The notes beneath the pieces were generated by a model, which was given only the letters and a program-made list of their open reading frames with translations, was not told the origin of the DNA and did not search any database. Shown here piece after piece: positions 4,759-62,329 of a stretch of DNA of 64,000 nucleotides. Each line of letters opens with the position of its first letter. Within the stretch, counting starts at the first letter, position 1. A program made the position numbers and the translations under genes. Origin of the DNA: a bacterium (GTDB taxonomy: Bacteria; Patescibacteriota; Minisyncoccia; Moranbacterales; UBA2206); the NCBI GenBank assembly GCA_030654225.1, contig JAURXY010000015.1, positions 397 through 64,396 of the forward strand, given 5' to 3'.

Positions 4759-5529
4759 CTAAAGAATAGTTTTTTTAATTTGATTTTTTTCATCTGGACA
4801 AAAATCACCAATCTTTTCTAATAGTCTACCCCCGTCACTAAATTCAGTTTGCGCATTCATAAGACAACCGGAAATTGCGTTATGCCCTAGTCCAAGTTGA
4901 TGGCCAAATTCATGCAGTAGTAAACTTGACATATGCGTGTCGAGATTTATTTGAGTATCATTTCGCATACTATTGGAAAGTGAATTTTTAAATATTACTA
5001 TTCCATTTTCTAAAAGTGTTGACCCCAAATTTGCACTATCATCTTTTTTCTGGCTTGCGATAAAAACATAGATGATTGCTCCTTGTGAAGATGGGGAAGA
5101 ATTATTTTTCTCTAATTCTTTTTGCAAATCTCCCATATTTATCGAGGCCTCATATTTGATACCTGGTCGAAATAAATAGATTGTTTTTTTCCCAGTTATC
5201 TCTTCAACTTTTTTTGCAAAAATTTTGGCGGTTTCATCGCTAATTTCCAACCCATTCATAGCAACAATTTTTATGCTTATATTTTTATATCTGTCTCCCA
5301 GATAGTCCGCCTTTGCATCCCCATCAAAATGAAGCCCGAGAGCTTGGCGCATCATTGGATAACGCGCAAACTTGTATCGCAAATTATCATTGAAAAAATT
5401 GCTTCCAGTGTCCAGTGCTGAAAACCTAAAATACATAAAGATGGCTAGGCCAGAAATGGAAAGAAGTAAAATAATTACAAATAGAAATTTTACTATACGC
5501 ATATTGATTTTATATCTCAATCCTATCAC
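4759..5529 (-). CDS. Membrane-anchored metzincin-type zinc metalloprotease (HEFGHQLGLGHN).
   Basis: HExxHxxGxxH zinc-binding motif near the C-terminus; N-terminal TM helix. Confidence 0.75.
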   Translation of the reverse strand: MIGLRYKINMRIVKFLFVIILLLSISGLAIFMYFRFSALDTGSNFFNDNLRYKFARYPMMRQALGLHFDGDAKADYLGDRYKNISIKIVAMNGLEISDETAKIFAKKVEEITGKKTIYLFRPGIKYEASINMGDLQKELEKNNSSPSSQGAIIYVFIASQKKDDSANLGSTLLENGIVIFKNSLSNSMRNDTQINLDTHMSSLLLHEFGHQLGLGHNAISGCLMNAQTEFSDGGRLLEKIGDFCPDEKNQIKKTIL

Positions 5530-12597: not shown

Positions 12598-12636
12598 TGA
12601 TGATCAAGAAGATGTGAAGGAAATTTTTGATAATTT
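12598..12636. repeat. Direct repeat copy 2, a displaced remnant of the yebC 3' end (encodes LDDQEDVKEIFDNL-stop).
   Basis: See 11342-11380. Confidence 0.7.
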
Positions 12637-13465
12637 ATAATTTCCCATTCTTTATCCTCGCTAATTCATCTCGAAGCATCATTAGCGTTTCTTGTTTCAA
12701 AATTTTTCGAATCATTTGAAAATTGTCATTTGACAAAAGCATATTCAAATCTTGATCGATAATTTCTTGGGTTATTTTATCTTCAACAAAAACCACCAAA
12801 TCCTCAAAGAATTTTTCTATTGAACATTTTCTTATGTCTTCTATAATTTTTGCATCATAGCGAAAACCATTCCAAAAAAAATAATGAACATCGTATACAT
12901 CGCGACCAGCAATACGGCCATTTTTTTCAAAGCGATTGATAAGTGCCACTAATTTATTCGCCACCATCGTTTCTCTCGTTTGGCAATTCACAATACGATC
13001 AATTTCCTCTAGCTGAGCGCTTTCATATTGATTAAATTGCGGGACAGGAAAGCATATATCTATTTTTAGCGTATTTCTTCCGCTCGCAGAAGTTGGATAT
13101 TTCAAAAAATATTGTGGGACATTACGACTCTTGTCTTTTATCTCCAAGCCAAGCTTTTGAAAAATTTCTTCCATTTTTTCTTGAACTTTTTTGATTTCTT
13201 CTTTTTCACTAATATAATCAAAATCCAAATCCACTGAAAATCGATCCAAAAATCCTCGCATAGCCGCGCAAGTTCCGCCTTTGAAATATAAAACTGTCGA
13301 CAAAAAGGCGTCGTCAAATAGTGCACTTAGAAGACGAAACATCCACGCTTTATGCTCGGCATCTTTTGCAGTTGGGGTAATCATTTTTTTTGTTTTTTTA
13401 ATTATTATTTTTATCGATTTTGTGGATAACCTATTTCTCTTTGAATGGCGCGCACTTTTTTCCAA
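12635..13465 (-). CDS. AbiEii/AbiGii-family nucleotidyltransferase toxin (type IV TA).
   Basis: YFKGGTCAAMRGFLDRFSVDLDFDY matches the DUF1814/AbiEii signature (FKGGTAL...RFSEDLDF). Confidence 0.78.
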   Translation of the reverse strand: MEKSARHSKRNRLSTKSIKIIIKKTKKMITPTAKDAEHKAWMFRLLSALFDDAFLSTVLYFKGGTCAAMRGFLDRFSVDLDFDYISEKEEIKKVQEKMEEIFQKLGLEIKDKSRNVPQYFLKYPTSASGRNTLKIDICFPVPQFNQYESAQLEEIDRIVNCQTRETMVANKLVALINRFEKNGRIAGRDVYDVHYFFWNGFRYDAKIIEDIRKCSIEKFFEDLVVFVEDKITQEIIDQDLNMLLSNDNFQMIRKILKQETLMMLRDELARIKNGKL

Positions 13466-13998
13466 TCAATCAAACGATCGCCGTCAAAATAACATCGGGG
13501 ATTGAAATATAAAATATCCGCCACCGCTCTTTCTGTTGACGCAACCTGCACCCCATTTTCCAAGACAATTCCAGCGTCATTATATAAATATTTATCCGCC
13601 AAACGACGACAACGATATTCTCGACCAGCAACAACAAAAGTTTTCGAAATAGAACTGATGATTGAAGTTTTTGGAATTTCTTGAAAAATTATTCCATTCC
13701 TAGCCAAAATTGTTTCGGTGCTAATATAAGCATAGCGATGCAATATTTTCACTCCCAAAAGAAAAGAATCGATTTTTTCCGCTGGCTGGAGAGAATAAAG
13801 ACCTCTTTGAATTCGCGTAATTAACCCCTCTTTAGCATATCGCTTGAGCGTAGTGTGTAGTGTATTGGGGTTTTTTATCTGCCATAAATTAGCCAAATCG
13901 TCGCAGTGAAAGACTAAAATGCCCATTTTAGCCAACTCAGCAAATCTTTGCTTATATGAGCCTTTATTTAATTTTACGGTATTTTTAACTGTACTCAT
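13411..13998 (-). CDS. AbiEi-family antitoxin / transcriptional regulator.
   Basis: Upstream of AbiEii and overlapping it by 55 nt; the size and N-terminal wHTH-like region fit. Confidence 0.7.
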   Translation of the reverse strand: MSTVKNTVKLNKGSYKQRFAELAKMGILVFHCDDLANLWQIKNPNTLHTTLKRYAKEGLITRIQRGLYSLQPAEKIDSFLLGVKILHRYAYISTETILARNGIIFQEIPKTSIISSISKTFVVAGREYRCRRLADKYLYNDAGIVLENGVQVASTERAVADILYFNPRCYFDGDRLIDWKKVRAIQREIGYPQNR

Positions 13999-14048
13999 AT
14001 GTACAGTATAGCAAACTTAGGATGTTTAGTCAACTACTTCCTGCGCGA

Positions 14049-14084
14049 ATCTTGCGCGAATCTTGCGTGAATGATTTATTTGTA
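14049..14084. promoter_or_regulatory. Three tandem 11-bp repeats (CTTGCGCGAAT) upstream of abiEi, a candidate operator.
   Basis: cctgcgcgaatcttgcgcgaatcttgcgtgaatga read directly. The AbiEi family is known to autoregulate through repeats in its promoter. Confidence 0.4.
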
Positions 14085-14175
14085 CTATATTTATCTCATA
14101 AATCAGCGACACCTGAATTATACTAAATGTTCACGTATAAACGAGATATTCAAAATATTATAAAAATTTAAAAAT

Positions 14176-14472
14176 ATGAACATCACTTTTGAAAAAATAG
14201 ACGAAATATTAAAAATTCTCAATATAGGGAAAAGTTTCCGTATTTTTGGTGGAATTGGGCTTTTAATATCTTTATGGACGACAAACGAACTAGCACTAAA
14301 AATATCTTTAATCACTTTCATTTTTGGAGCACTTTCTAGAATAGTAGAAATGATAAACAAAACTCAAAAAATAAAGGATAGTATCCTTTGGCAAATTACT
14401 TTTTGGATGATATTTTTAGTGCTATACACCGTATCAATTAATGTTCAACTAAATATTTTTAAATTTTTATAA
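14176..14472 (+). CDS. Small membrane protein, hypothetical.
   Basis: 98-aa ORF with 2-3 TM segments in an AT-rich accessory patch. Confidence 0.35.
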   Translation: MNITFEKIDEILKILNIGKSFRIFGGIGLLISLWTTNELALKISLITFIFGALSRIVEMINKTQKIKDSILWQITFWMIFLVLYTVSINVQLNIFKFL

Positions 14473-14529
14473 TACATCGCCTAACAAGAAATATTCGGTT
14501 CACAAAATTAATTAAATTATTTTAATCCT

Positions 14530-14745
14530 ATGAAGAAAAACTATGTCGTGCTCATCTTGGTTGCCCTTCTTATAGCTGGACTTGCTTTTTATCGATATGA
14601 TTATCGTCCATCTAAAATAAAGCGACAATGCTCCGCAGAAGCTAGATTCGCCTCAAGGGCGACTAATGAACCGAACGATGCAAAAAGACAAGAATACATA
14701 AATAGGTATTACGACGATTGCTTGATGCGATTCGGATTAAAATAA
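14530..14745 (+). CDS. Small exported or TM-anchored protein, hypothetical.
   Basis: 71 aa with an N-terminal hydrophobic helix. Followed by a 62-bp repeat that also follows the 15232 ORF. Confidence 0.35.
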   Translation: MKKNYVVLILVALLIAGLAFYRYDYRPSKIKRQCSAEARFASRATNEPNDAKRQEYINRYYDDCLMRFGLK

Positions 14746-14803
14746 TTTTATTTTTAACGCTTGCTCATCTAAATTTGTCTCCGCTACGCTACGCCAAACT
14801 TCG
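14742..14803. repeat. 62-bp direct repeat, copy 1 (TAATTTTATTTTTAACGCTTGCTCATCTAAATTTGTCTCCGCTACGCTACGCCAAACTTC).
   Basis: Identical copy at 15427-15490. Both sit immediately 3' of small ORFs. Confidence 0.6.
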
Positions 14804-14830
14804 GATATTCCTAGGCGTTAGCTGAAATAC

Positions 14831-15142
14831 ATGTTTTTTCAAGAATCTATATTTTTGATAATTAATAATCAAACGCATATGATAAACCCAGAAACAAAAA
14901 AAGAATTTACAGAAGCTGAATTATTGCATGTTATCATGGAAGATGTCGGGAGACTTGCAACAATAGAAAATACTCTTCGAGAAGAAGGTGAAAATTTACC
15001 TTTATACAACAGAGTCAGAGGCATTGAAATGCGCACCTATGAAACAGTGAATGTTTTGTTTGCAATAAAACGATTACTTACAGCTCTAACGTGTCTCGTA
15101 GCAGGAATTGCGCTATTATTATTTGCAAAATTCTTTTTTTGA
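14831..15142 (+). CDS. Small protein with a C-terminal TM helix, hypothetical.
   Basis: 103-aa ORF. Confidence 0.35.
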   Translation: MFFQESIFLIINNQTHMINPETKKEFTEAELLHVIMEDVGRLATIENTLREEGENLPLYNRVRGIEMRTYETVNVLFAIKRLLTALTCLVAGIALLLFAKFFF

Positions 15143-15231
15143 AGTTAAAAGTTTTAAAAACATGTACATCAGCTAACACGGCATAGCCGATTCGCTCACT
15201 AAACAAAATTATTTTTAAACTCTTTAAATTT

Positions 15232-15426: not shown

Positions 15427-15490
15427 AAAATAATTTTATTTTTAACGCTTGCTCATCTAAATTTGTCTCCGCTACGCTACGCCAAACTTC
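15427..15490. repeat. 62-bp direct repeat, copy 2.
   Basis: See 14742-14803. Confidence 0.6.
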
Positions 15491-15602: not shown

Positions 15603-16181
15603 TTGAGCTATAATATAGATATGAAAAATAAATCAAAAACTTCAAAATCAACTTTGCGAATCCTAGGTGTTGATCCTGGGACGGCCACCACTGGTTGGGC
15701 AATATTAGAAGAAAAAAGTGGCGAGATGAAACCCTTGGCCTATGGCCATATTAGCACCAGTCCCGAAAAATCAGATGACGAACGAATTTTGGAAATATCC
15801 AAAGATTTGAAAAATATTATTGAAAAATATCAACCTCAGGAAGCTGGCATTGAAGAAATTTTCTTCTTCAAAAATCAAAAAACCATCATTACTGTGGCTC
15901 AAGCTAGGGGAGCAATTCTATTGACATTAAGGCAAAATAATGTTAGAGTGTCCAATTACACTCCCCTCCAAGTCAAACAGGCGATCACGGGCTATGGGCG
16001 AGCGGATAAAAAACAAATGCAGACTATGACCAAGAGTATTTTGAATTTAGTAGAGTTGCCAAAGCCGGATGACACAGCCGATGCTATTGCGATTGCGCTT
16101 TGCCACATCAATAGTCGAAAAATTAATAACCTTAATCGCGATTCGAATCAACGAATGCATTCGAATCTACGAATAAACTAA
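15603..16181 (+). CDS. ruvC: Holliday junction resolvase RuvC. The C-terminal ~15 aa are encoded by the CGAAT repeat array and may be read-through.
   Basis: RILGVDPGTATTGWAIL, the catalytic Asp/Glu arrangement and ADAIAIALCH are a RuvC signature. Confidence 0.9.
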   Translation: MSYNIDMKNKSKTSKSTLRILGVDPGTATTGWAILEEKSGEMKPLAYGHISTSPEKSDDERILEISKDLKNIIEKYQPQEAGIEEIFFFKNQKTIITVAQARGAILLTLRQNNVRVSNYTPLQVKQAITGYGRADKKQMQTMTKSILNLVELPKPDDTADAIAIALCHINSRKINNLNRDSNQRMHSNLRIN

Positions 16182-16239
16182 ACAAAAATTCGTAGATTCG
16201 AGAATTCGCATATATTTGTAGATTCGAATCGGTATAATT
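16137..16239 (+). promoter_or_regulatory. Array of TTCG(A/T)AT / TTCGTAGATTCG repeats ending in TTCGTAGATTCGAATCGG-TATAAT-TATG, a promoter element for the 7TM gene.
   Basis: Read directly. The -10-like TATAAT lies 4 nt before the ATG. An almost identical element precedes the next gene (16897-16991). Confidence 0.5.
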
Positions 16240-16890: not shown

Positions 16891-16896
16891 CCGACA

Positions 16897-16991
16897 CGAA
16901 ATTACGAAACAAGAACGAATCTACGAACAAAAATCAAAAAACATTTTCGTAGATTCGCATTAAATTCGTAGATTCGCATCGGACAATTATT
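16897..16991 (+). promoter_or_regulatory. Second copy of the repeat promoter element (...TTCGTAGATTCGCAT TAAA TTCGTAGATTCGCATCGGACAATTATTATG).
   Basis: Read directly; the last 30 nt are near-identical to the element at 16210-16239. Confidence 0.5.
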
Positions 16992-28378: not shown

Positions 28379-29536
28379 TTAATTCTTTATCGGCATCACG
28401 ATATATGTGAAATTATCCAAAACTTCCCCAGATTTTTCATTAATTTCACGAACTGCTACGGGAGTAGCTTCACTATTTAGCAAGATTGCCACTTGAGAGG
28501 TAGTGGTAGCGTTAATTCCATCTAAAAGATACTTAGCGTTAAAAACAACTTCTTGAGATGGTCCTGTGATGTCAAATTTGAGCTCAGCTGAATTTTCTCC
28601 CACCTCAGCGCTAGAAGATAGAATAAAAATTTTTTCTTCCTCTTGGCTAATTTTGAGCGTTATCTCATTTGATCCCCCTGCAGAAAAAACACTCGCCATC
28701 TTAATAGCATTTTGCAAAACTTGTTTTTCCCCTACTATTCTCGTTTTATATTCCGCCGGCATTATATGTTTATATTCTGGATATTTTCCATTTATAAGCC
28801 TAGAGACTAACTTAATACCATCTATTTCAAAAAATATTTGCCCCTCTTCAATAGTTATTTTTACTCGATTGTCAATGTCAGGCGCCAGCATCCGATTTAA
28901 TTCCCCTAAAACATTAGCTGGGATAATCACATTTTCATTTTTTTCAATAAAAAGCTTATAAGTTTCCTTATTTATATTAATTTCTTCTATTTTTATTTGA
29001 CATTCTGAAAGACGAAAACTATCTGTGGCCGCAAAAATAAGCTCTTTTTCTTTTAATATAAGGTTTATTCCTGTAAGTTCTTGACGTGATTCATTAAACG
29101 CTACTGCTGGCATTACCTTTAAAATAGCGGTTTTTAACTCTAAACTAGAAAGATCTAATAAATATTCCGTTTTTCGTAGAGGTAGAAGAGGAAAATCTTC
29201 CGCGGAAATTCCTTTTATTATAGCTTTATTTATCCCACTTTTTATTTTCAGATTATTATCCACAAGTTCAAGGGAGATATTTTCTCCACTTGGAAGATTA
29301 GCCGAAAAATTACTAATAAGTTTAGCGGGGATTGTTATTCTACCCTCTTTTTCTATTTTTGCCCCTATTTTAGAAGAGACTCCAATTTCTAAATTAGTAG
29401 CAGATAGTTTTAATCCTCCTTTTTCTGTTTCAAAAAGAATATTATTTAGAATAGGTAGGGTGTTTTTCTTTGAAACTACTCTTTCACAATTAAAAATTGC
29501 TTTTTTAAAATTCACTTCCGTACAAATTAGTTTCAT
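28379..29536 (-). CDS. dnaN: DNA polymerase III beta sliding clamp.
   Basis: Position immediately downstream of dnaA; three-domain length and an N-terminus typical of DnaN. Confidence 0.9.
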   Translation of the reverse strand: MKLICTEVNFKKAIFNCERVVSKKNTLPILNNILFETEKGGLKLSATNLEIGVSSKIGAKIEKEGRITIPAKLISNFSANLPSGENISLELVDNNLKIKSGINKAIIKGISAEDFPLLPLRKTEYLLDLSSLELKTAILKVMPAVAFNESRQELTGINLILKEKELIFAATDSFRLSECQIKIEEININKETYKLFIEKNENVIIPANVLGELNRMLAPDIDNRVKITIEEGQIFFEIDGIKLVSRLINGKYPEYKHIMPAEYKTRIVGEKQVLQNAIKMASVFSAGGSNEITLKISQEEEKIFILSSSAEVGENSAELKFDITGPSQEVVFNAKYLLDGINATTTSQVAILLNSEATPVAVREINEKSGEVLDNFTYIVMPIKN

Positions 29537-29824
29537 ATTGTTTTATTTAGTATTTAATTATTCTTATTATTAGTATAAAGTTATTACTATTATTACATAA
29601 GGCGATAATGGGGTATAAGTGCTAATTTTGTTTTATATAAGCTAAAATATGTGTGGATAAGAATTGGATAAGTCTTTAGGTGGGGGTATTTTTTAAGTGG
29701 GATAATTTAGAGGGAAAAAATATATTTTAGAAATATTTCAACTTAGGAACAGGTCTTTTGATATTTTAAACACAGAGTTAATAGTGGGTTTTTAAGCTTC
29801 TTATCCACAAGATAAGCACTTTTA
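29537..29824. promoter_or_regulatory. dnaA-dnaN intergenic DnaA-box cluster with an AT-rich unwinding region (part of oriC).
   Basis: Perfect TTATCCACA boxes at 29652-29660 (minus orientation) and 29801-29809, plus 1-mismatch boxes at about 29666 and 29703. A highly AT-rich run lies at 29537-29640. Confidence 0.6.
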
Positions 29825-31204
29825 TTAGTTTATAGTATATAAAATATCGCGTAGGTGAGTAATTTCTTCGTCGAGTCTTTCGTCTAATTTGATTTCTTTG
29901 GAAATTTTTTCATAAGCATGCATAGCTGTAGTATGATCTCGTCCACCTAATTTATCGCCAATACCTGGGTAAGAGTAGGAAAGTTCACTACGCATAAGAA
30001 ACATAGCTATTTGACGGGGTTTTACCACTTCTTGCTTTCTGTTTTTTGCCACTAAATCAGCTGGAGATATTTCATAAAAATCAGAAACAGTCTTAATAAT
30101 ATGTTTATGATTAATGCCTTTTTTCTTGCCACTAGAGATAATATCAGATAATATTTGCTTTGTATAAGCTGAATCTAGTGATTTTTTAGTTAATTGGGCG
30201 CTCACAGATACGCGGTTTAGGGCACCTTCTAGCTCACGAATGTTGTTTTTAATATTAGTAGCGATAAATTCCAATGCCTCTTCGGTGATTTCCACTCCAT
30301 TTTGAAGGGCTTTTATCTTAAGAATAGCTAATCTAGTCTCAAGATCAGGCTTGGATACATCAGCAATCATCCCCCCTTCAAAGCGCGAACGCAGTCTTTC
30401 CTCGAGAATTTGGATAGCTTTAGGGGCTCGATCACTAGAAAGGACTATTTGCTTGTTGAGTTGGTAGAGATAATTGAAAATATGGAAAAATTCTTCTTGA
30501 GTTTTCTCTTTTCCTGAGATAAATTGAATATCATCAATGATAAGGAGGTCTATTTTTTGGTAATATTCCTTAAATTCTTGGATTTTCTGAGTTTTTATTG
30601 AATCTATTAGATCACTAGTGAATCTTTCTGAAGAAATGTATTTTATTCGAGTTTGGGGGTTTATTTTTAGTGCTTCATTGCCAATAGATTGAATAAGATG
30701 GGTTTTCCCTAAGCCCACTCCACCATAGATAAAAAGCGGATTATAAACGTTTCCAAGACTCTTTGAGACAGCATAGCAAGCAGCGCGAGCCAGCTCATTG
30801 CTTCCGCCGATAACAAAATTCTCAAAGGTATATTTTTGGTTTAAATTACTTTCTTGGCTTATTGGTGGCTTTTTTTCATAAAAAACAGGTGATTTTTTGG
30901 GAGCTTGAACAGCGTCGACAGTTATTTCTTTATTTGTTTGAGGAAAAGATTGAGTTGGACCGGAAGAAATCAGGCAAGAAACTGATTTTATATCGCCCTG
31001 AATATTTTTCAAGGCTCGTAGGATGTACAGATCATACTTATTTTCTAGCCATTCTTTAGCAAAGCCATTTGGAACACCAATAACTACATGGCCGTCCTTA
31101 AGGGAAAGAATAGAGGTGTTTTTAAACCAAGTGATAAAATTAGCCTTAGAAATAGAAAGCTCTATTTCCCCTAGGGCTGTTTGCCAAAGTTCCTCGTTGG
31201 TCAT
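29825..31204 (-). CDS. dnaA: Chromosomal replication initiator DnaA.
   Basis: AAA+ block GGVGLGKTHL, DnaA box-binding C-terminus. The start was set at the ATG giving MTNEELWQ; the longer tracked ORF begins with TTG. Confidence 0.9.
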   Translation of the reverse strand: MTNEELWQTALGEIELSISKANFITWFKNTSILSLKDGHVVIGVPNGFAKEWLENKYDLYILRALKNIQGDIKSVSCLISSGPTQSFPQTNKEITVDAVQAPKKSPVFYEKKPPISQESNLNQKYTFENFVIGGSNELARAACYAVSKSLGNVYNPLFIYGGVGLGKTHLIQSIGNEALKINPQTRIKYISSERFTSDLIDSIKTQKIQEFKEYYQKIDLLIIDDIQFISGKEKTQEEFFHIFNYLYQLNKQIVLSSDRAPKAIQILEERLRSRFEGGMIADVSKPDLETRLAILKIKALQNGVEITEEALEFIATNIKNNIRELEGALNRVSVSAQLTKKSLDSAYTKQILSDIISSGKKKGINHKHIIKTVSDFYEISPADLVAKNRKQEVVKPRQIAMFLMRSELSYSYPGIGDKLGGRDHTTAMHAYEKISKEIKLDERLDEEITHLRDILYTIN

Positions 31205-31255
31205 TTTATTGATTAAGTTAATAAAGAAAGTTTTACTAAAAAAAGTATAACACAA

Positions 31256-48485: not shown

Positions 48486-48540
48486 TAATCAAAGAACAAC
48501 AATCAATGATCAATAAATACAAAATAAAAAAATTCTGTCT

Positions 48541-48993
48541 TTATTGTTCATTGTTCATTGATCCTTGTTCTCTGTTTAATCTTTTTGTTAATTCTTCTAT
48601 TTTTTTATTATCTAAAACTTTTCTTTTGACAATAGTTTCTTCTTTAGGTTTTTGGATTTTCTTGTTTGCTTTCATATTATCATAATATCGTTTCCAAACA
48701 TAGACCTTAGGTTTCATAAAAAAGTTTACTCCGGACATTAGAAAGTTGAGAAGTGGTTGATTGTATGGTTTGTAGAAAGCTAGGGCGCCAAAAATTCCCA
48801 AAGTGATAATGGCTACGGGAAGAAAAGTAGAAAAAACCAAAGTACTCCAAAAAATCAAAAGCAAAACCCCGGCAATTCCAAGCCAGCCAAGTTGTTTGGC
48901 AGTGAGCGGACCGACGATCTTATCTTCGATGTCGATGAATTGTGGGACGTTAAACAACATAATCAATGAGCAATGAACAATGATCAATATCAC
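48541..48993 (-). CDS. VirB3-like small membrane protein.
   Basis: About 150 aa with two TM helices, located immediately upstream of VirB4. Confidence 0.45.
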   Translation of the reverse strand: MILIIVHCSLIMLFNVPQFIDIEDKIVGPLTAKQLGWLGIAGVLLLIFWSTLVFSTFLPVAIITLGIFGALAFYKPYNQPLLNFLMSGVNFFMKPKVYVWKRYYDNMKANKKIQKPKEETIVKRKVLDNKKIEELTKRLNREQGSMNNEQ

Positions 48994-49382
48994 GATTCAT
49001 TACTGGGTTTATTATTAATAGTGTTTATACTGGACCAAAGCATTTTGCTTACTTCTTCAGCATTATTATAAAAATCCATATAATCTTCTTTATTTATGTA
49101 ATTTCTCTTATACGCGAAATATATTTGGTATTTTGCTTCAGCACATGATCCGTAGGCAATTTCTAATTGATTTAGAAATACTTTGCTTCTGTTTCTAGAA
49201 TATCCCTCAATAATATTTGATGGGACTGAAATTAGGGCTCTTCTGACTTGAGAAGTTAGGCAATATAATTCTTCTTTTGGAAATTTATATGTCAGATCAT
49301 AACCCTTGTGCGCCAACGCATCAGCTTTTCTTTTTAGAATATCTTTATCTCTTATTGTATTTTTTGTGTCTATATTGTTCAT
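48990..49382 (-). CDS. Four-helix-bundle protein (the family often found in 23S rRNA intervening sequences).
   Basis: LTSQVRRALISVPSNIIEGYSR matches the family signature (LTSQ.RRA..SI..NIAEG). Confidence 0.7.
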   Translation of the reverse strand: MNNIDTKNTIRDKDILKRKADALAHKGYDLTYKFPKEELYCLTSQVRRALISVPSNIIEGYSRNRSKVFLNQLEIAYGSCAEAKYQIYFAYKRNYINKEDYMDFYNNAEEVSKMLWSSINTINNKPSNES

Positions 49383-49392
49383 TGCTCGTTGA

Positions 49393-50754
49393 TTATTGAT
49401 CCTTGAGGTTGACTATATTCCCCGGTGGAACGTTGCTGTTTCGCAGATTTTGTGAGGAAATGCGCATTGGTTGCGGACTCGGAACTGGTTTTTGGGGTTG
49501 TTGAATTGGCTGAGGTTGAATCGTTTGTTTTTCATATGGCAATTTTTGCGGAGAGCTGAAATTTATATTGCCTGCATTTCTATTTTCTGTGGCTAATCTT
49601 TCTTCTTTGAAAATATCATTCGGTTTTGTTTCTTGTTTTTGAAAATTATAAACTTCTTGGATATTTCTTTGCGGTGCTTGGAATTGCGGATTATTTATTA
49701 TTGTTCCTTGTTCATTGATTCTTGTTTCATGTTTCGGAAAAACAATTTGCTTAGTATTGACATTAACATCCACGAGTGAATTTTCATCATAAGCTTTCAA
49801 AAGAAAAGAAATTTTTTCGCGGTCAGTTGAATTTAGGACTTTGGCATTTTCATTGCGAAAAAGATATGTTCCGCGATCCATAGCGCTGTGTGATTCAAAT
49901 CCCAAACTAAATGTATAATCTGAAAGCCAATTGTTGATTGATGGTCGCACAGGTTCTGGAAAATTTTTGAGTTTGATGCGCATTGAGGTGATAAGTTGTT
50001 CGCCGAGTTCGGGAAATTTTTTGAGAGCGTCGGAAAGGGAAAGTTGTTCTATTCTTGATTGCTCTTGTTGATTATATGGATTGTATTCTTGCGGAATATA
50101 ATTATGTAGAGTTTGAGGTTGTGGAGATAAATTATTTTGTGATAACTCTGCTTCGGAAGGTGAAAAACTTAGAATTTCATCAAGAACTGGCCCAGTAGCT
50201 GGTAATGTAGTGATAAGTAAATAATCATAAGTATGAATCAATTCTTTTAGTTGGCTTTTTTCAATAGGATTTAGTGTCGTGGCATTTCGATTTGTGTTTA
50301 CAAAATCAACGCAAGCAGATAAATTTCTAGTTTTGACATTATAATTCTTTTCAAATTCAGTTAACCATTGTGAGACTGTAAGAAGCCCAAGTTTTTGTTG
50401 ATTTTCCATAAGTGCTCGCTTGAGTTTTTCTCGAAGTTCGTCACGAGGAATTTCTGGCACAGAAAAAAGTTTCACAGTTAATCTATTTTCCATATCAATT
50501 TCAATTCTATATGATTCCAAATAATAATTGCGAAATACATTAACCACTTCTTCATCAGACAATTGAGGAATAGCGACAATCTTTAGATGGATTAATAATC
50601 TTTGTAATTGTTGAAATAAAGGAGGATTATTTTTTTGAATATCTGGAGACATTAAAAAACTTTCTAATTCTTTGATTAGTTTTTTTGCTACTACATCATC
50701 ATAATGACGAATAGCATCTTGAGATTTTTCTAAAAATTGATTTGAAAAATTCAT
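49393..50754 (-). CDS. Gln/Pro-rich hypothetical protein (T4SS-like island).
   Basis: 453-aa ORF with a low-complexity P/Q-rich C-terminus. Confidence 0.5.
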   Translation of the reverse strand: MNFSNQFLEKSQDAIRHYDDVVAKKLIKELESFLMSPDIQKNNPPLFQQLQRLLIHLKIVAIPQLSDEEVVNVFRNYYLESYRIEIDMENRLTVKLFSVPEIPRDELREKLKRALMENQQKLGLLTVSQWLTEFEKNYNVKTRNLSACVDFVNTNRNATTLNPIEKSQLKELIHTYDYLLITTLPATGPVLDEILSFSPSEAELSQNNLSPQPQTLHNYIPQEYNPYNQQEQSRIEQLSLSDALKKFPELGEQLITSMRIKLKNFPEPVRPSINNWLSDYTFSLGFESHSAMDRGTYLFRNENAKVLNSTDREKISFLLKAYDENSLVDVNVNTKQIVFPKHETRINEQGTIINNPQFQAPQRNIQEVYNFQKQETKPNDIFKEERLATENRNAGNINFSSPQKLPYEKQTIQPQPIQQPQKPVPSPQPMRISSQNLRNSNVPPGNIVNLKDQ

Positions 50755-50772
50755 TTTATATTTGTATATAAA

Positions 50773-53055
50773 TTAGCCCTTTTTAATTCTATCCGCTTGT
50801 GCACGTACTGGATCCATTCCTTTTCTTTCTCTTACTCTATCGGCGAATTCTCTGATTATTTTAGCTTGTTCTGGATTCGCTTTTACTGCTGGTATTTCTG
50901 GAGTTGTTGCTGTTGCTGCTACTATGGGTGTGCCAGCTTCAATTTTGTTTGCATATATATCTATAGCTTCAACTTGAGTTATTAATCCGTCAAAAAAGTC
51001 ATCTCGTACTCGATTTAATTGATCAAGAACGGCCGTATTTAGTTGCTCTAATTGAATTTCTCCAAACCTATGAAGTTTGCCAGCATTACCATCAGTATCC
51101 TGTTGAAGAAATGAATTCCAATGCCATAAGTCAGTTTTTGTTTGCGCTTTAATGTTCTTTGCTTTTCCACGAGATAATTCTATTTGTTTATCATCAGATG
51201 TTTCGGCATAATTTCCTTTTGCATCGATTGCACTCATGCCATATAATTGATAATTTCCTTTTCCATAAGCGATTTCTCCCATATCTGCAATGTGTTTGCC
51301 AGCTTCTGATTCTTGCATTCCAACTTTCTTAAGTCTTTTAAATAATTCTCTTTTTAATTCAAATGGATCCATAACAAATCCTTCTTCCTTGGAAAAAGAA
51401 TTAAATTCATTGGTTTTGGCGATAATTCTAAGCATAGCTGCCATCTTTTCTTTGTCTTTGGCTTTTTCAGCCATTTTATATTCTCCATAGATATAAGCGA
51501 AATCAGTACTCACTGCTTCGGCATCTTTTTCATGCTGAGCAACCAATGATTGAATAGCTGCTTCGCCGTGTCTGGATTGGCGGTTCATCCATTTTTTTGG
51601 ATTTACTGTCCAAAATCTATTGAGAGTATCTCTCCAATTGCCAGTTGCCGGCCCAAAAGCTTTTTTGTCCAATTCTTCTTCTCTTTGTTTCCAAGCAGTC
51701 TTTAGTGCTGTTGGACTAAGATATTGCAATGGGCGAAAGATTTTATTTTTTGATCTTCCAGTGCTAGCCAATCCTCTATCTGCTTTATGACCAAGCCATT
51801 TTGCAGTTCCCTTCATAAACCCTTGCGCTTTGCCGACGACGGCGCTTCCGGCTGAGCCACTCATTTCTTTAGCAATGCCTAAACCTATCCAGAGGATTAT
51901 AATAGGAAGGAAAAAAAAGGCAAGCGTGGCAATGTACTCTGGATCGGAGGTACTCTTATTAGCTAAGGTTTCCATATCTAAAATTCCATTTTTTTGAATT
52001 TCATTCATAAGGGAAGATGCAATATACATCATAAAAAGCATAATCGGACCAAAAAAAGAATAATCAAAAAGTTTTTTCCACCAATCGCTAGAATGTTTAG
52101 CCAGTGGCGGAACGGCAGCACCTACAAAGGCTAATGAAGAAAAAATAATTAAAACTGCCAAGGCGAGAGTGCGGATGACAAAAAGAACGGAAATAGTCAA
52201 CATAGTCACCATAAAGATGAAGACAAAAACGACCGCTGCCAAAAGACTAGCCGTATCTTTTCCTACTGCTGGATGCATTATGCCTGGCAAATTAGAAATA
52301 CTGGCAAAGCTAACAAAAGTATCTACTTTATTAGAGCCTATTTCTAGGACAGTGACAAAGTAATACATCAGCATATTAGAAGTATCAATGATGAAACGAG
52401 AAATTGGAAAACTGAAATTAACTAGAAGTGCCATAAGGACAATCTTTAAAAGTGTATTTTTGTAGTTATATTTGTCAATTTGAAAAACAGTAGCAAAAGC
52501 AGAAAAAAGCAGGAACATAATGAAAGAAACATTAAGTGCATCGCGCACCAATGCCCAACCACCATAAATAGCCTCACTACTAAGAATAGAACTGATACTA
52601 TTGGGTTCCATTATCCATTTAAAAAGAGCGCCAGCTAAAATTGTTAGCCGTACAAAAAATTCTAAAAGAGTAAGGAGGGTGCAGTCTATAGGGTCAAATA
52701 CAAAAGAACAGGAGGTGGAATTTCCAGGGTCTTTAACTACTGTTTGAGTTTTTTGATCAGTAGTGTTAGTTTTTTGATTAACTGGATTCCATATCATATC
52801 TCCACCGCCATGATTTGATTGTGATATTGTGGCTGCAGCTATACAAGCACTTTTTGTCATAGTTCCTAAATTATCATCAACTGTTAACGGTAATCCTGAG
52901 GCTGCATCAAATTCTGTGTATCGATTATAACATAAGCCAAGAGTAGTATCATCTTCCTCCGCCTCCGCCTTCTCCCCTTTCCCAAACCCAAAACCAAGCA
53001 CTAGGCAAAAAATAATTACTAATATAAATTTGGTTGTTGTTGATTTTTGTTTCAT
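50773..53055 (-). CDS. VirB6/TrbL-like polytopic membrane protein with a large C-terminal cytoplasmic domain.
   Basis: Signal peptide, extracellular Cys-containing segment, at least 6 TM helices, then a roughly 300-aa soluble tail. Confidence 0.5.
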   Translation of the reverse strand: MKQKSTTTKFILVIIFCLVLGFGFGKGEKAEAEEDDTTLGLCYNRYTEFDAASGLPLTVDDNLGTMTKSACIAAATISQSNHGGGDMIWNPVNQKTNTTDQKTQTVVKDPGNSTSCSFVFDPIDCTLLTLLEFFVRLTILAGALFKWIMEPNSISSILSSEAIYGGWALVRDALNVSFIMFLLFSAFATVFQIDKYNYKNTLLKIVLMALLVNFSFPISRFIIDTSNMLMYYFVTVLEIGSNKVDTFVSFASISNLPGIMHPAVGKDTASLLAAVVFVFIFMVTMLTISVLFVIRTLALAVLIIFSSLAFVGAAVPPLAKHSSDWWKKLFDYSFFGPIMLFMMYIASSLMNEIQKNGILDMETLANKSTSDPEYIATLAFFFLPIIILWIGLGIAKEMSGSAGSAVVGKAQGFMKGTAKWLGHKADRGLASTGRSKNKIFRPLQYLSPTALKTAWKQREEELDKKAFGPATGNWRDTLNRFWTVNPKKWMNRQSRHGEAAIQSLVAQHEKDAEAVSTDFAYIYGEYKMAEKAKDKEKMAAMLRIIAKTNEFNSFSKEEGFVMDPFELKRELFKRLKKVGMQESEAGKHIADMGEIAYGKGNYQLYGMSAIDAKGNYAETSDDKQIELSRGKAKNIKAQTKTDLWHWNSFLQQDTDGNAGKLHRFGEIQLEQLNTAVLDQLNRVRDDFFDGLITQVEAIDIYANKIEAGTPIVAATATTPEIPAVKANPEQAKIIREFADRVRERKGMDPVRAQADRIKKG

Positions 53056-53157
53056 AGTAGCGATGCGAATAATGCGAATAACATGCGAATGATGCGAAAT
53101 TGATTAGCGATGCGAATGATGCGAACTGCATGCGAATACCGCGAATGGTTAGGATGA
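53050..53157. repeat. Array of about 8 ATGCGAAT-type repeats at 9-11-bp spacing.
   Basis: gcgATGCGAATaATGCGAATaacATGCGAATgATGCGAAattgattagcgATGCGAATgATGCGAActgcATGCGAATaccGCGAAT read directly. Confidence 0.7.
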
Positions 53158-53541
53158 TTAGACTTTACTGTTGATGACTCGTTTGGGTTTTAAATAGGAT
53201 TCTCTGAAATTAATAAGCAAACCTAATTTTAATTTTGATGAAACTAAATATCTTTGCATTTGTCCATAGTCTTCTTTGGTGATAAACTTTTTTGCCTTAA
53301 AATCAATTAATAATTTTTCTTCGATTATAAAATCTACTATATTACCATTGATATCATTATTTTCTAATTTATTTAGTGCAAATTCCCTTTTGTATTTTAT
53401 CTTTTTTTCTATCAACCATTTTTCAAATTCATCAGAGTATTGTTTTTCTTTGCAAAATCGTCCTAGTCTATCTTGAATCTTAAAACAAATCCCAACAATC
53501 TCATAACACAAATCTTTATAAATTATTTTCTCTGATTCCAT
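53158..53541 (-). CDS. GxxExxY-family protein.
   Basis: LGRF..E..Y near the N-terminus and KLGLLINF near the C-terminus fit the family. Confidence 0.65.
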   Translation of the reverse strand: MESEKIIYKDLCYEIVGICFKIQDRLGRFCKEKQYSDEFEKWLIEKKIKYKREFALNKLENNDINGNIVDFIIEEKLLIDFKAKKFITKEDYGQMQRYLVSSKLKLGLLINFRESYLKPKRVINSKV

Positions 53542-53598
53542 TTTTTTATTTTTTGTATTTTGTTCGTTGCATTCGCATGTGTTCGCATATTCGCATCG

Positions 53599-54522
53599 CT
53601 ATTGTTTGACAGCATTCACTCCAAACCTCGCGGCTGGTCCGTAGGTGGTCATAGCTTGATTGGTAGCATTGGTATATTTGGTCACGCCGGCGGTGGCCTT
53701 GGCGGTTTTGGAACGAACACTCACGAATCCTTGTGTGATAGATTGGTTGATCATTTGAGTGACCAAGGCAGTGGTTACTTCTGGGATGCTGGAGGCGGCC
53801 TGAAGAATTTTGTTGGGCATATCTTGGGCGTTAGCCATTAATTCTTTGGTCAAAATACCAGGACTTGTAGCTGTACCGGGGAAACCTTGATTGGCTATGG
53901 CTTTATTTTGAGCAGCAAATTTCTTATTTTCAAACACTCGTTGTTGTTCAGCTTGAACAGCAATCTTAAAGCTCCAAGGATTGTTGACGCCAGAAAGATA
54001 GAGCTCCATATTTTTGAAATTGCCGGTTTGAAGCATTTGCGAAGGATCACCTTCATAGGATAGTTCTGGATTCTTGGCTTTACCCAAAATTCCTGCTGCT
54101 TGTCCAAGTTGGGCACCATAGTTGGCAGGACCGGAAAATCCTTCAGTGGAATAGAGTGAAGAAGAATTTCTTCCGCGAGTCATTTGGCTGATGTAGTCAT
54201 TCATATAGAGATTGGTTTCATTCATCGGTTCATCAACAAGATATGTTTCCCAATTAATGATGAAAGTCGGCTCGCCATCGGCGCCACTTCCCGCCAGTAT
54301 ATCCACTTGCGAGTTCAACATTTTGACAGCCTGTTGCTTCAAGGTGCCAACGATAAGACCATTGACCATTTCTAGAATTTTTTGCAAACCAGATGTGATT
54401 CCGGGGTCAACTGCTGGCCAAAAAGCTGCTTGAGATTTTGGTATATTATAAAAACAAAAAACAAACAGCAAAAAACCGGATAGAACTGTTCTTTTTATAA
54501 TTTTATTTTTAGTTGAATTCAT
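53599..54522 (-). CDS. Secreted hypothetical protein (T4SS-like island).
   Basis: Signal peptide; Ala/Gln/Asn-rich. Confidence 0.5.
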   Translation of the reverse strand: MNSTKNKIIKRTVLSGFLLFVFCFYNIPKSQAAFWPAVDPGITSGLQKILEMVNGLIVGTLKQQAVKMLNSQVDILAGSGADGEPTFIINWETYLVDEPMNETNLYMNDYISQMTRGRNSSSLYSTEGFSGPANYGAQLGQAAGILGKAKNPELSYEGDPSQMLQTGNFKNMELYLSGVNNPWSFKIAVQAEQQRVFENKKFAAQNKAIANQGFPGTATSPGILTKELMANAQDMPNKILQAASSIPEVTTALVTQMINQSITQGFVSVRSKTAKATAGVTKYTNATNQAMTTYGPAARFGVNAVKQ

Positions 54523-57330: not shown

Positions 57331-57415
57331 TATCGATGCGAACAATGCGAATTTTATGCGAATGCCACGAATTTATTTGCATCATTCGCATGTCATTCGT
57401 AGATTAGCATCGCTA
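57330..57415. repeat. ATGCGAA / TTCGCAT repeat array in inverted arrangement between convergent genes.
   Basis: gATGCGAAcaATGCGAAttttATGCGAATgccacgaat ... cATTCGCATgtCATTCGTAGattagcatcgc read directly. Confidence 0.6.
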
Positions 57416-60769: not shown

Positions 60770-60831
60770 AAATCAGTGATCAATAATCAATGATCAGCGA
60801 ACAATAAAAACGAAATAATTATATTTATTGA

Positions 60832-61314
60832 TCATTGATCTTTGGTCATTGTTACTATTAATATTGTTATCACTCCTATTGTAATATAAATATCCGCCAA
60901 ATTAAATACCGGCCAGAATTTTAGATCTATAAAATCAATGACACAACCAATACAAAGCCTGTCGATAATGTTTGATATTCCCCCAGATAAAATTAAAATA
61001 GTTGCTATTAAGTTAATCTTGTTTAAATTTCTAATTTCTAACCTGCCTCGCCGGCAGGCGGGTTTCCAATTTCTAATCAAATTTCCAATTTTAAATTTAA
61101 AATTATAGATAAATAAAAATAAAGTAATTAATAATATAGCCGAAATAATTATATACGGACTTAATCCGAATGCCAAATCTTTATTACAAATATAAAATCC
61201 GCCTTTGGTGCGGATGATATATTTTGAAATCTGATCAAGAAAAATCAGGAAAGAAAAAATAAAAAAATATATTGTTTTTTTATATTTATACATTCTTAGT
61301 GATATTATTCGCAT
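60832..61314 (-). CDS. lspA: Lipoprotein signal peptidase II.
   Basis: NKDLAFGL, GGISNIIDR, FNLADIYI conserved blocks. Confidence 0.85.
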   Translation of the reverse strand: MRIISLRMYKYKKTIYFFIFSFLIFLDQISKYIIRTKGGFYICNKDLAFGLSPYIIISAILLITLFLFIYNFKFKIGNLIRNWKPACRRGRLEIRNLNKINLIATILILSGGISNIIDRLCIGCVIDFIDLKFWPVFNLADIYITIGVITILIVTMTKDQ

Positions 61315-61343
61315 GGGCGCATTCGTAGCGCGCTATTCGCATG

Positions 61344-61697
61344 CTAACAGTCAAGACAAACTCGTGCACTTGGATTAACTCGAAGTCTTTCCAGCGGAAT
61401 ATCCTTGGCACAATTTTCGCATTTTCCATAAGTACCTTTTTCTTGTTTTTCCAAAGCTTCAAGCACATCTTGTAATTGTTTTTCTAGAGAAGTTTCCACT
61501 GATAAATTTTGAGAATATTGATCAACTTCTGTTGCATTGTCATCTTTGTCAGTTCCAAGCTCCTCAAAAGAAGTTTCATAATCGCCCTCTTTTTTGTTGA
61601 TCGGTTTTGCAATGCGCCCTAAATTTTTTTCTAATTCTTCTTTTTCTCGAAGAAGCATCACTCTCAGTTCACCTAATGTTTTTTGGTCGATGGCCAT
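61344..61697 (-). CDS. DksA/TraR-family C4-type zinc-finger protein.
   Basis: A coiled-coil followed by CENCAKDIP...ARVCLDC. Confidence 0.8.
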   Translation of the reverse strand: MAIDQKTLGELRVMLLREKEELEKNLGRIAKPINKKEGDYETSFEELGTDKDDNATEVDQYSQNLSVETSLEKQLQDVLEALEKQEKGTYGKCENCAKDIPLERLRVNPSARVCLDC

Positions 61698-62148: not shown

Positions 62149-62329
62149 AAATTCTTTCTTTACTAATTACCCGCCTCGCGTCGACGAGCAATCGTCTTGC
62201 GAGTCGAGGCGGGCTAATCAAATACTAATATACTAATTTTGTTTATATTAGTATATTCGTACAAAATTCGTAATTCGTAAAGAGGTAACAAAAAACACCC
62301 CAATCTTAGGTGCTTCAAAATCAAAATAA

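Follow-up and report, generated by a model that had tools for sequence, protein, structure and literature searches.

Phased repeat arrays in a Moranbacteria genome as probable terminal arms of small palindromic insertion elements

We have studied the arrays of a short repeated motif, ATGCGAAT, that lie between genes of a metagenome-assembled genome (MAG) of Moranbacteria. The arrays were examined within a single stretch of 64 kb, termed here the window, and compared with related sequences on short metagenome contigs that are labelled L followed by a number. A preliminary description of the window had listed a series of such arrays, and reading the sequence confirmed the described motifs at every one of these sites. 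At the centre of this study is a cassette at 53060-53599, in which the arrays lie to either side of a gene of the GxxExxY family. Other arrays form hairpins that contain no open reading frame (ORF).

The GxxExxY cassette and its repeated arms

The cassette lies between two genes that encode proteins of 307 and 760 amino acids. Its own gene occupies 53158-53541 on the reverse strand and encodes a protein of 127 amino acids that matches the GxxExxY/PDDEXK_3 family (PF13366, E = 2e-19; TIGR04256, E = 3e-19). This gene is placed between arms of about 40 nt. The 5′ arm at 53563-53599, on the reverse strand, has the sequence GCGATGCGAAT-ATGCGAAC-ACATGCGAAT-GCAACGAA, and its first G also completes the TAG stop codon with which the upstream 307-residue gene ends. 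On the opposite side there are two arms on the forward strand, the inner one at 53107-53146 and the outer one at 53060-53098, the latter stopping 4 nt short of the start codon (ATG, 53055-53053) of the 760-residue gene downstream. The arms are thus ~420-460 nt apart, two on one side of the gene and one on the other. The inner 3′ arm is an extra tandem copy, which is not found in the orthologous cassette of L127. The eight copies of the motif that had been counted at 53050-53157 are indeed present, but they make up two tandem arms of four repeats each rather than one array.

Each arm begins with a (TA)GCGA terminus, followed by four quasi-repeats ending in GAAT according to the scheme (A)GCGA-YNC-GAAT, ..RAAT, RCA-YNC-GAAT, GA-YNC-GAAT. 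The outer 3′ arm provides an example, reading GCGATGCGAAT-A-ATGCGAAT-AAC-ATGCGAAT-G-ATGCGAA, and the consensus of the arms of related metagenome cassettes is GCGA..C.AAT...C..A...CA..CGAATGA..CGAAT. The starts of successive repeats are spaced by 8-9, 10-12 and 9 nt. The repeats are therefore phased, as had been described, with a mean spacing of 9-10 nt that falls slightly below the ~10.5 bp originally given. The arms are arranged as inverted pairs, either back to back as hairpins or on either side of one gene. A hidden Markov model (HMM) trained on 71 arms from related elements finds eight matches in the window, at 16138(+), 16231(-), 16981(-), 53060(+), 53107(+), 53599(-), 57334(+) and 57413(-). 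The E values for the cassette are 3.8e-6 for the 5′ arm, 4.6e-5 for the inner 3′ arm and 6.8e-8 for the outer 3′ arm.

The preliminary description had named random frequency without phasing as the outcome that would speak against its arrays. The overall abundance of the word is raised only mildly, TGCGAAT occurring 23 times in the window against 12.7 expected, a count reached by one of 100 shuffles. It is the arrangement, both clustering and phasing, that is far from chance. GCGAAY/RTTCGC neighbors at a distance of 8-12 nt form 10 pairs; in 200 shuffles that preserve dinucleotide composition the mean is 0.23 pairs, and no shuffle has more than 3. The densest 100 nt contains seven matches where the shuffles reach at most four.

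The two sides of the cassette are strongly complementary. The 5′ arm matches the reverse complement of the 3′ arm at 31 of 34 aligned positions (z = 17.7), and in the minimum free energy fold of the whole 561-nt cassette it pairs with the 3′ arm at 53107-53146 across the ORF. This fold has z = -2.6, and was equalled by none of 100 shuffles.

The gene between the arms is under strong purifying selection, with dN/dS = 0.058 in comparison with its 94% identical orthologue in L127. Across 25 aligned homologues D70, K82 and K84 never vary, with D80 at least 90% conserved; these four are candidate catalytic residues of a PD-(D/E)XK enzyme. An AlphaFold2 model of the protein (pLDDT 88.9) has the order of strands and helices of the PD-(D/E)XK fold. 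The neighbors of the model in Foldseek are weak (best E = 2e-3, TM ~0.5), the best of those in the PDB being PD-(D/E)XK enzymes, and include alkaline exonuclease, Cas4, lambda exonuclease, Hjc, tRNA-splicing endonuclease and I-Bth0305I. The product is thus predicted, from alignment and model together, to be a minimal nuclease domain of this superfamily. A scan of ~70 ORFs of the window against Pfam (79 are listed, of at least 90 amino acids) gave no match to a transposase, integrase or Y1-transposase domain.

Hairpins without a gene, and empty junctions in close relatives

Elements with these arms take three forms. The full form of ~470-540 nt consists of an arm, the GxxExxY nuclease gene (~125 amino acids) and an inverted arm; the short form of ~90 nt has two arms back to back, giving a hairpin that resembles a miniature inverted-repeat transposable element (MITE); and the third form is a solo arm. 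The window contains three hairpins of the short form, all of which are small (80-94 nt), have inverted ends and lack coding capacity, as is characteristic of MITEs. The first, at 57334-57413, has arms at 57334-57372 on the forward strand and 57375-57413 on the reverse strand (E = 2.9e-5 and 1.3e-6). It lies between the convergent genes for UbiA and KsgA, with an RNA fold of -31.0 kcal/mol (z = -3.81), and one of its arms encodes the last residues of KsgA. The second, at 16138-16231, is a TTC/CTACGAAT variant (E = 2.7e-4 and 3.2e-3) between the RuvC and 7TM_transglut genes; its fold is -38.7 kcal/mol (z = -6.05), and the RuvC frame extends into it by 14 codons. The third, at 16891-16982 between the 7TM_transglut and ATP-grasp genes, has a degenerate left arm, a right arm matched at E = 1.5e-3 and a fold of -31.2 kcal/mol (z = -7.12). 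The 7TM protein encoded between the second and third hairpins is 100% identical to a MAG protein recorded at NCBI as 'bacterium', and the nearest relatives that bear a name are from Moranbacteria. The earlier judgement that the arrays are not simply promoters was right, and no promoter belonging to the cassettes was recognised.

The junctions that are occupied in the window are empty in close relatives. That between RuvC and 7TM_transglut holds no element in L124 and L125, where it measures 17 nt, nor in L121, where it measures 36 nt; the window has a hairpin of ~100 nt there. The 7TM_transglut/ATP-grasp spacer is 4 nt in L124 and L125 and 5 nt in L126, compared with another hairpin of ~100 nt in the window; L121 has a different composite element at this position. 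The genes that flank the cassette are separated in L207 by a spacer of only 6 nt (TAA-AAGTAA-ATG, the sequence of the empty site being TAAAAGTAAATG), and the whole cassette is present in both the window and L127. Lastly, the genes for KsgA and UbiA overlap in L207, at the place where the window carries the 57334-57413 hairpin. The relatives with empty orthologous junctions share 88-93% protein identity with the window, and the absence of the elements from such close relatives indicates that they are insertions. They are also multi-copy, as MITEs are, with eight arm matches in 64 kb and empty sites in L124, L125, L126 and L207.

The same junctions in L121, L208 and L209 hold other palindromic elements, indicating that these spacers are a shared niche for insertion. 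The short spacers of operons appear to be a niche common to several families. The elements of L208 (~4966-5130 and 1131-1211) and L209 (~5005-5104 and 1090-1195) have the termini GTAGAGGCGCGATTTATCGCG...CGCGATAAATCGCGTCTCTAC and TGTCATTCCCGCGAAAGCGGGAATCC...GGATCCCCGCATTCGCGAGGATGACA.

The insertions are closely fitted to the genes around them. In 30 of 36 distinct cassettes a co-oriented host ORF begins no more than 25 nt past the TCGC end (mostly 1-8 nt, with a mode of 3-5), and in 25 of 34 a co-oriented stop codon falls in the interval from 9 nt within the arm to 14 nt upstream of GCGA. Such adjacent stops and starts mean that the cassettes are wedged into operons, and since the elements sit in very short spacers, usually in the orientation of their neighbors, they are probably transcribed by read-through. 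Elements of this kind inside the operons of very compact genomes re-code the ends of genes (RuvC and KsgA in the window) and break assemblies, and annotation and binning of genomes of the candidate phyla radiation (CPR, or Patescibacteria) should allow for them.

Could the gene alone account for this polymorphism? A free-standing homing endonuclease would cut alleles of the same locus that lack the cassette and be copied into them during repair, with the arms either incidental or protecting the occupied allele by splitting the target. The cassette is present or absent between conserved genes as this predicts, its gene is under purifying selection, and some homing endonucleases use the PD-(D/E)XK fold, I-Bth0305I being among the weak matches to the model. 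However, homing explains a single locus, and not pairs of arms without an ORF at many unrelated junctions. It also leaves unexplained why four-repeat arms should be conserved on both sides of the gene in lineages that have diverged by 50%, and the flanking host genes vary from locus to locus, so that there is no common target gene. We consider homing improbable.

Three further arrays in the window are less certainly related, and may be degenerate copies or members of another subfamily. That at 61307-61345 on the reverse strand is probably a degenerate solo arm. It keeps the order of the first three repeats (TGCGAAT, CTACGAAT and CATGCGAAT), with GC-rich inserts of 5-6 nt that widen the repeat spacing to 14 nt, and gives no hairpin signal (z = 0). 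The array at 62255-62279, also on the reverse strand, contains three copies of TACGAAT (ATTCGTA). It adjoins a GC-rich hairpin at 62171-62213 and resembles the TACGAAT-arm hairpins of L208 and L209, making it a candidate solo arm of a TACGAAT subfamily. The third, at 14042-14072 on the forward strand, comprises three 11-nt repeats of CTTGCGCGAAT that we have not placed in the arm family. It lies directly upstream of a promoter-like site, TTGACT-17-TATACT, that was picked out by eye on the abiEi strand. The array may alternatively be an operator of abiE rather than a member of the family.

Arms and gene vary together

Two proteins of the window had no exact match on record, and the comparison was made through homologues. 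We extended the analysis to 80 metagenome loci encoding relatives of the GxxExxY protein with 52-94% identity, 76 of which had sufficient flanking sequence. In 63 of these 76 the two flanks are complementary, the 5′ flank aligning with the reverse-complemented 3′ flank at z > 4 relative to shuffles. In Portnoybacteria L059 the GxxExxY homologue starts directly beside an array of arm repeats, and hairpins of the same architecture are found in MAGs of Falkow-, Portnoy-, Moran-, Sungii- and Spechtbacteria, and in MAGs assigned no further than Patescibacteria or Saccharibacteria. Viral contigs were also searched, and contained no relatives of GxxExxY. The coding sequence can run into the arms themselves. 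In many cassettes (L138, L146, L155, L180, L183 and others) the ORF continues into the 3′ arm, giving C-terminal tails such as YSDNSDAHSD, and in others the final repeat of the 5′ arm contains the start codon (CGAATG).

The motif by itself is far less specific. A scan of a genome collection for three copies of ATGCGAA gave 120 matches, most of which were chance tandem repeats in unrelated phyla, many of them coding; members of the family were confined to the subset with irregular spacing, in which the gaps between ATGCGAA copies are 2 and then 3-5 nt. This raises the question of whether the arrays have arisen independently at each site, as products of slippage or as ordinary terminator hairpins. 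The repeats are short and tandem, their number varies (as in the duplicated arm at 53107-53146), and chance repeats of ATGCGAA do occur in many unrelated genomes. Yet dozens of CPR lineages share one 40-nt order of a GCGA terminus and four distinct quasi-repeats at fixed spacing, and the arms are tied to one gene family, while the ends of the hairpins have no consistent T-run. An independent origin at each site is scarcely credible.

Other arrays of the ATGCGAA type are present in Bacteroidales MAGs (L010, L057, L017, L104, L089, L092 and L094). Some have a period of 8, with three copies of ATGCGAAA in inverted pairs, and others a period of 11 (ATGCGAACGNN), with inverted TCGCAT repeats ahead of them. 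These may be unrelated, or only distantly analogous.

The variation of the arms is concerted. The triplet YNC that precedes GAAT differs among elements, being TGC, TAC, TCC, CAC, CGC or CCC. Within an arm the same triplet occurs in repeats 1 and 3 in 66% of cases, compared with 15% for arms of different elements, and in repeats 1 and 4 in 49%; the repeat-1 triplet is equal between the 5′ and 3′ arms in 75% of elements. Among 34 aligned pairs of arms, the variable positions stay paired through two-sided changes in 14-18 elements (with pair counts such as UA:18/CG:14 and CG:11/AU:9/GC:6). The protein varies along with the arms. Pairs of loci in the same triplet class have a protein identity of 0.625, compared with 0.570 for those in different classes (permutation p = 2e-4), and hairpins lacking an ORF that share a contig with a cassette mostly have the triplet of that cassette. 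The arms and the GxxExxY gene are inherited as one unit. An asymmetry between the arms in repeat 1 (CTAAT in the 5′ arm and CGAAT in the 3′ arm) was not significant (p = 0.23).

A stem requires only that the two arms be complementary to each other. The additional presence of an invariant GAAT at four phased positions and of a triplet shared between the repeats of one arm points to the repeats as targets of sequence-specific recognition. Binding of a protein to the phased sites, as first proposed, is still the best reading of four GAAT-ending repeats with fixed spacing and a concerted triplet. What does not survive is the idea of stand-alone chromosomal sites, the arrays being inverted arms of small insertion elements.

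The same evidence bears on the proposal of the preliminary description that the arrays serve the cell, as sites for a nucleoid-associated protein, a global regulator or a partition protein, or as curved DNA. Phased repeats with a conserved GAAT core would be expected of such sites, and the repeats at 14042-14072, upstream of their promoter-like site, could be a real operator. However, the arrays are missing from the same junctions of close relatives, and of the ~38 intergenic regions in the window that are 40 nt or longer they occupy only 8. Nothing in the observations calls for intrinsic curvature. Inverted pairs enclose one gene family in 63 of 76 loci, and the triplet varies both between lineages and between elements of a single contig, which would not be expected of sites bound by a conserved host protein. 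Arms that form hairpins, flank GxxExxY and are absent from orthologous junctions are not what such host sites would look like, and we regard this explanation as very improbable.

Mode of spread, related systems and neighboring repeats

The arrays are best read as inverted arms that terminate small palindromic insertion elements in Patescibacteria, with a proposed binding of the nuclease to the arms and a stem formed on read-through. We put the probability of this reading at about 75%. Its component steps can be set out as follows. The phased repeats would be cognate binding sites, and the most parsimonious candidate to bind them is the nuclease that the element encodes. This would assemble on both arms and cut at the GCGA/TCGC termini, and might mobilise in trans both full copies and those lacking the ORF. 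We suggest the involvement of the nuclease in binding, cutting and mobilisation tentatively, by analogy with the relationships between REP sequences and RAYT enzymes and between MITEs and transposases. On read-through transcription the arms could pair into a stem of ~35-40 bp, looping out the insert. Such a stem would be a substrate for an enzyme of the RNase III type, as in the intervening sequences (IVSs) of 23S rRNA, and the insert would leave the operon mRNA. The stem would also restore a separation of only a few bases between the stop codon upstream and the start codon downstream, and its processing could make insertion within operons tolerable. The precedent for this step is provided by the IVSs (PMC4990558).

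The read-through stem overlaps with a different explanation, in which the arms act solely at the RNA level. The element would then be an IVS-like insulator from which RNase III removes the insert; the nuclease would be a passenger or have some role other than mobility, spread would occur by recombination or through an enzyme not yet known, and the repeats would not be binding sites for protein. The long stems do fold far beyond shuffles, and 30 of 36 cassettes are co-oriented with the flanking host genes, their arm ends adjoining the upstream stop and the downstream start. The architecture matches that of the Coxiella 23S IVS (PMC4990558), and a 23S_rRNA_IVP gene within the window has the same layout (see below). 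However, a stem alone does not explain why phased GAAT should be present four times across CPR phyla, nor the triplet shared by repeats 1, 3 and 4. Neither does it account for the arrival of copies without an ORF at new junctions, and the spectrum of arm mismatches lacks the bias toward G:U on the sense strand that might be expected. An action purely at the level of RNA seems to us rather unlikely.

Several observations weigh against the insertion elements as we picture them, with their nuclease and their stem. The mismatches between arms have no excess of changes compatible with G:U pairing on the sense strand (67 vs 70), and thus selection on an RNA stem is unsupported by this test. The GxxExxY protein is a bare nuclease domain of ~125 amino acids without a separate DNA-binding domain, and has no close relative of solved structure (E = 0.34 in a sequence search, in addition to the best Foldseek E of 2e-3). 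No unambiguous target-site duplication was found: TA flanks some copies, where it is inseparable from extension of the palindromic repeat (TAGCGA..TCGCTA), other copies lack TA, and the empty sites are too diverged for base-by-base alignment. The repeat spacing of 9-10 nt falls short of 10.5. The arm HMM misses the arrays at 14042-14072 and 62255-62279, and matches that ending at 61345 only at E = 5. The counts of arms and copies rest on 64 kb of the source genome. Finally, three distant, plasmid-borne GxxExxY genes from outside the CPR (L210-L212) are flanked by short repeats only, and not by four-repeat arms; the association of arms with GxxExxY may be confined to this CPR clade.

The repeats flanking those plasmid genes are of different kinds. 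The gene of the Treponema plasmid has inverted flanks of 11 nt (ACACGGATTCG/CGAATCCGTGT), that of the Fusobacteria plasmid is flanked by a direct repeat of AGATTTAATCCGTGTACCTA, and the flanks of the Persicobacter gene contain periodic runs of AATCC. Flanking repeats of some form may be general to the GxxExxY family.

The window contains a second family of cassettes. A gene for 23S_rRNA_IVP, an S23p protein with a bAvd-like four-helix bundle, occupies 48990-49382 (PF05635, E = 2e-32) within a cassette at 48961-49403 on the reverse strand. Its arms, at 49374-49403 and 48961-48989, consist of inverted ATCAATG/CATTGAT heptamers, and form an inverted repeat (I15) of 23 nt with 96% complementarity. 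The gene takes its start codon from within the 5′ arm, and on the other side the ATG of a PrgI-like gene directly follows the 3′ arm. This cassette has the same design as that of GxxExxY, with another motif and another protein. It stands among ordinary genes of a cluster resembling a type IV secretion system. The corresponding junction of L207 holds an S23p gene with an array of NNCCAAT repeats ahead of it, and that of L208 and L209 a TACGAAT hairpin without an ORF, the gap in L209 being 108 nt with no call for a 23S_rRNA_IVP gene. Hairpins of ATCAATG without an ORF are found in the window at 60774-60851 and at 48500-48567, corresponding to the inverted repeats I25 and I8; the former ends 4 nt before the ATG of a gene for a protein of 509 amino acids.

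These cassettes invite comparison with the IVSs. That of Coxiella is 428 nt in length, with a terminal stem of 28 bp, an ORF in the loop and heptameric direct repeats, and its excision by RNase III has been demonstrated (PMC4990558). The IVSs of rRNA are regarded as selfish, with an origin and means of spread described as unclear (PMC4990558), and ORFs for 23S_rRNA_IVP have been reported in rRNA insertions of CPR bacteria (PMC11270868). Like the IVSs of Coxiella, Leptospira and Salmonella with their S23p ORF, the elements are ~430-540 nt long and have a terminal complementary stem enclosing a small ORF of ~120-130 amino acids in the loop, and this is true of both the GxxExxY and the 23S_rRNA_IVP cassettes; the heptameric direct repeats of the IVS lie near its 5′ end. 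Unlike IVSs, the elements of the window lie between protein-coding genes and not in an rRNA helix, and those with ATGCGAAT arms carry a PD-(D/E)XK nuclease rather than a four-helix bundle, with four phased quasi-repeats in each arm. With genes for S23p and for a nuclease now found in similar cassettes between ordinary genes, how rRNA IVSs originate and spread becomes a testable question.

Copies lacking the ORF are more akin to the Correia elements of Neisseria. These MITEs of ~100-155 bp have terminal inverted repeats and a TA target, lie between genes, and are co-transcribed as hairpins that are cleaved by RNase III; no transposase is known for them. Like them, the copies without an ORF are imperfect palindromes of ~90 nt that are multi-copy, intergenic and polymorphic between relatives, and abut or slightly re-code the ends of genes. 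They differ in having internally repetitive arms and no clear target-site duplication. Moreover, in contrast to MITEs they have no recognised transposase as partner, the partner that contains an ORF encoding a minimal nuclease (PF13366/TIGR04256).

Repetitive extragenic palindromes (REP, or BIME) and RAYT together form the "REPtron", in which the gene for the enzyme is flanked by inverted copies of a palindrome that is also dispersed between genes. A REP unit is a single hairpin of 20-40 nt with a GTAG tetranucleotide; such units are lineage-specific and co-vary with the enzyme, and RAYT is a Y1 (HUH) transposase. In the same manner the arm unit flanks an enzyme gene, is dispersed intergenically and has a lineage-specific sequence. 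The enzyme, however, is of the PD-(D/E)XK type rather than Y1_Tnp, and the arm is an array of four repeats in 40 nt. The ends of Tn7, Mu and the plant hAT and CACTA elements also carry several short direct repeats each, roughly helically spaced and inverted between the two ends, which serve as phased binding sites for the transposase. The arms share this organisation of phased direct repeats inverted across the element, but in an element of <0.6 kb without a DDE enzyme, where repeats at 9-11 nt fill the arm.

Two other systems were considered as candidates. TIGR-Tas arrays are short-period, weakly conserved repeats of CPR bacteria and phages, with a unit of 36 nt having two variable spacers of ~9 nt between edge and loop repeats, adjoining a Tas gene with a Nop domain (PMC12045711). 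We rejected this assignment, as the arrays in the window have a period of 8-12 nt with 1-3 variable bases and no spacers, and there is no Tas gene among the Pfam results. Integron cassettes do not fit.

By these comparisons the elements are palindromic insertion elements, of a known kind. A bolder proposal is that mobility is conferred by the GxxExxY protein itself, a member of a large orphan family, and that these very small autonomous elements form a class not recognised before. Several subunits would bind to the four repeats of each arm, with YNC as a co-evolving code of specificity, and cleavage at the GCGA/TCGC termini would mobilise the cassette and its hairpin derivatives alike; S23p and the IVSs would constitute a parallel branch. 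On balance we judge this unlikely, while allowing that it has a real chance of being right. If it were true, the long-unexplained IVSs of rRNA would share the same lifestyle, that of an ORF in a repeat-armed hairpin tolerated inside transcripts.

A survey of the PD-(D/E)XK superfamily lists PDDEXK_3 (GxxExxY) as a family of unknown function (PMC3424549), and we found no description of these arms or elements in the literature, most subscription journals lying outside the search. For this family, which is common in CPR genomes, the hairpin-armed and insertion-polymorphic cassette with its ORF-less derivatives is the first concrete context. The concerted triplets provide a natural series in which to study how the specificity of a minimal nuclease, or another protein that binds the arms, has changed.

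Other repeats lie close to the arrays. The GC-rich hairpin at 62171-62213 has the sequence CCCGCCTCGCGTCGACGAGCAATCGTCTTGCGAGTCGAGGCGGG, and a near-identical copy is found at ~1470-1515 in L121, where it is nested within the arm pair CCGATTCGAATCTAC...GTAGATTCGCATCGC. It seems to belong to a third family of repeats, nesting within the arm elements. The repeats at 14042-14072 are neighbored by a toxin-antitoxin pair, AbiEi/AbiEii (12635-13998, by Pfam match), beside which there is a variable islet. This has two ORFs at 14176-14472 and 14831-15142 with no match in Pfam, each bracketed by inverted repeats of 22 nt (14156-14474 and 14817-15177, with 100% and 91% complementarity), and a direct repeat of ~60 nt that occurs twice, at 14744-14803 and 15428-15490.

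No Rfam family, rRNA included, was matched in the window at gathering thresholds, and permissive thresholds over the elements gave only sub-threshold matches to generic hairpins (miRNA precursors). There are no tRNA or tmRNA genes in the window. The genes dnaN and dnaA lie at 28379-31255 and the cumulative GC skew has its minimum at ~28-30 kb, so the window probably spans the region of the replication origin.

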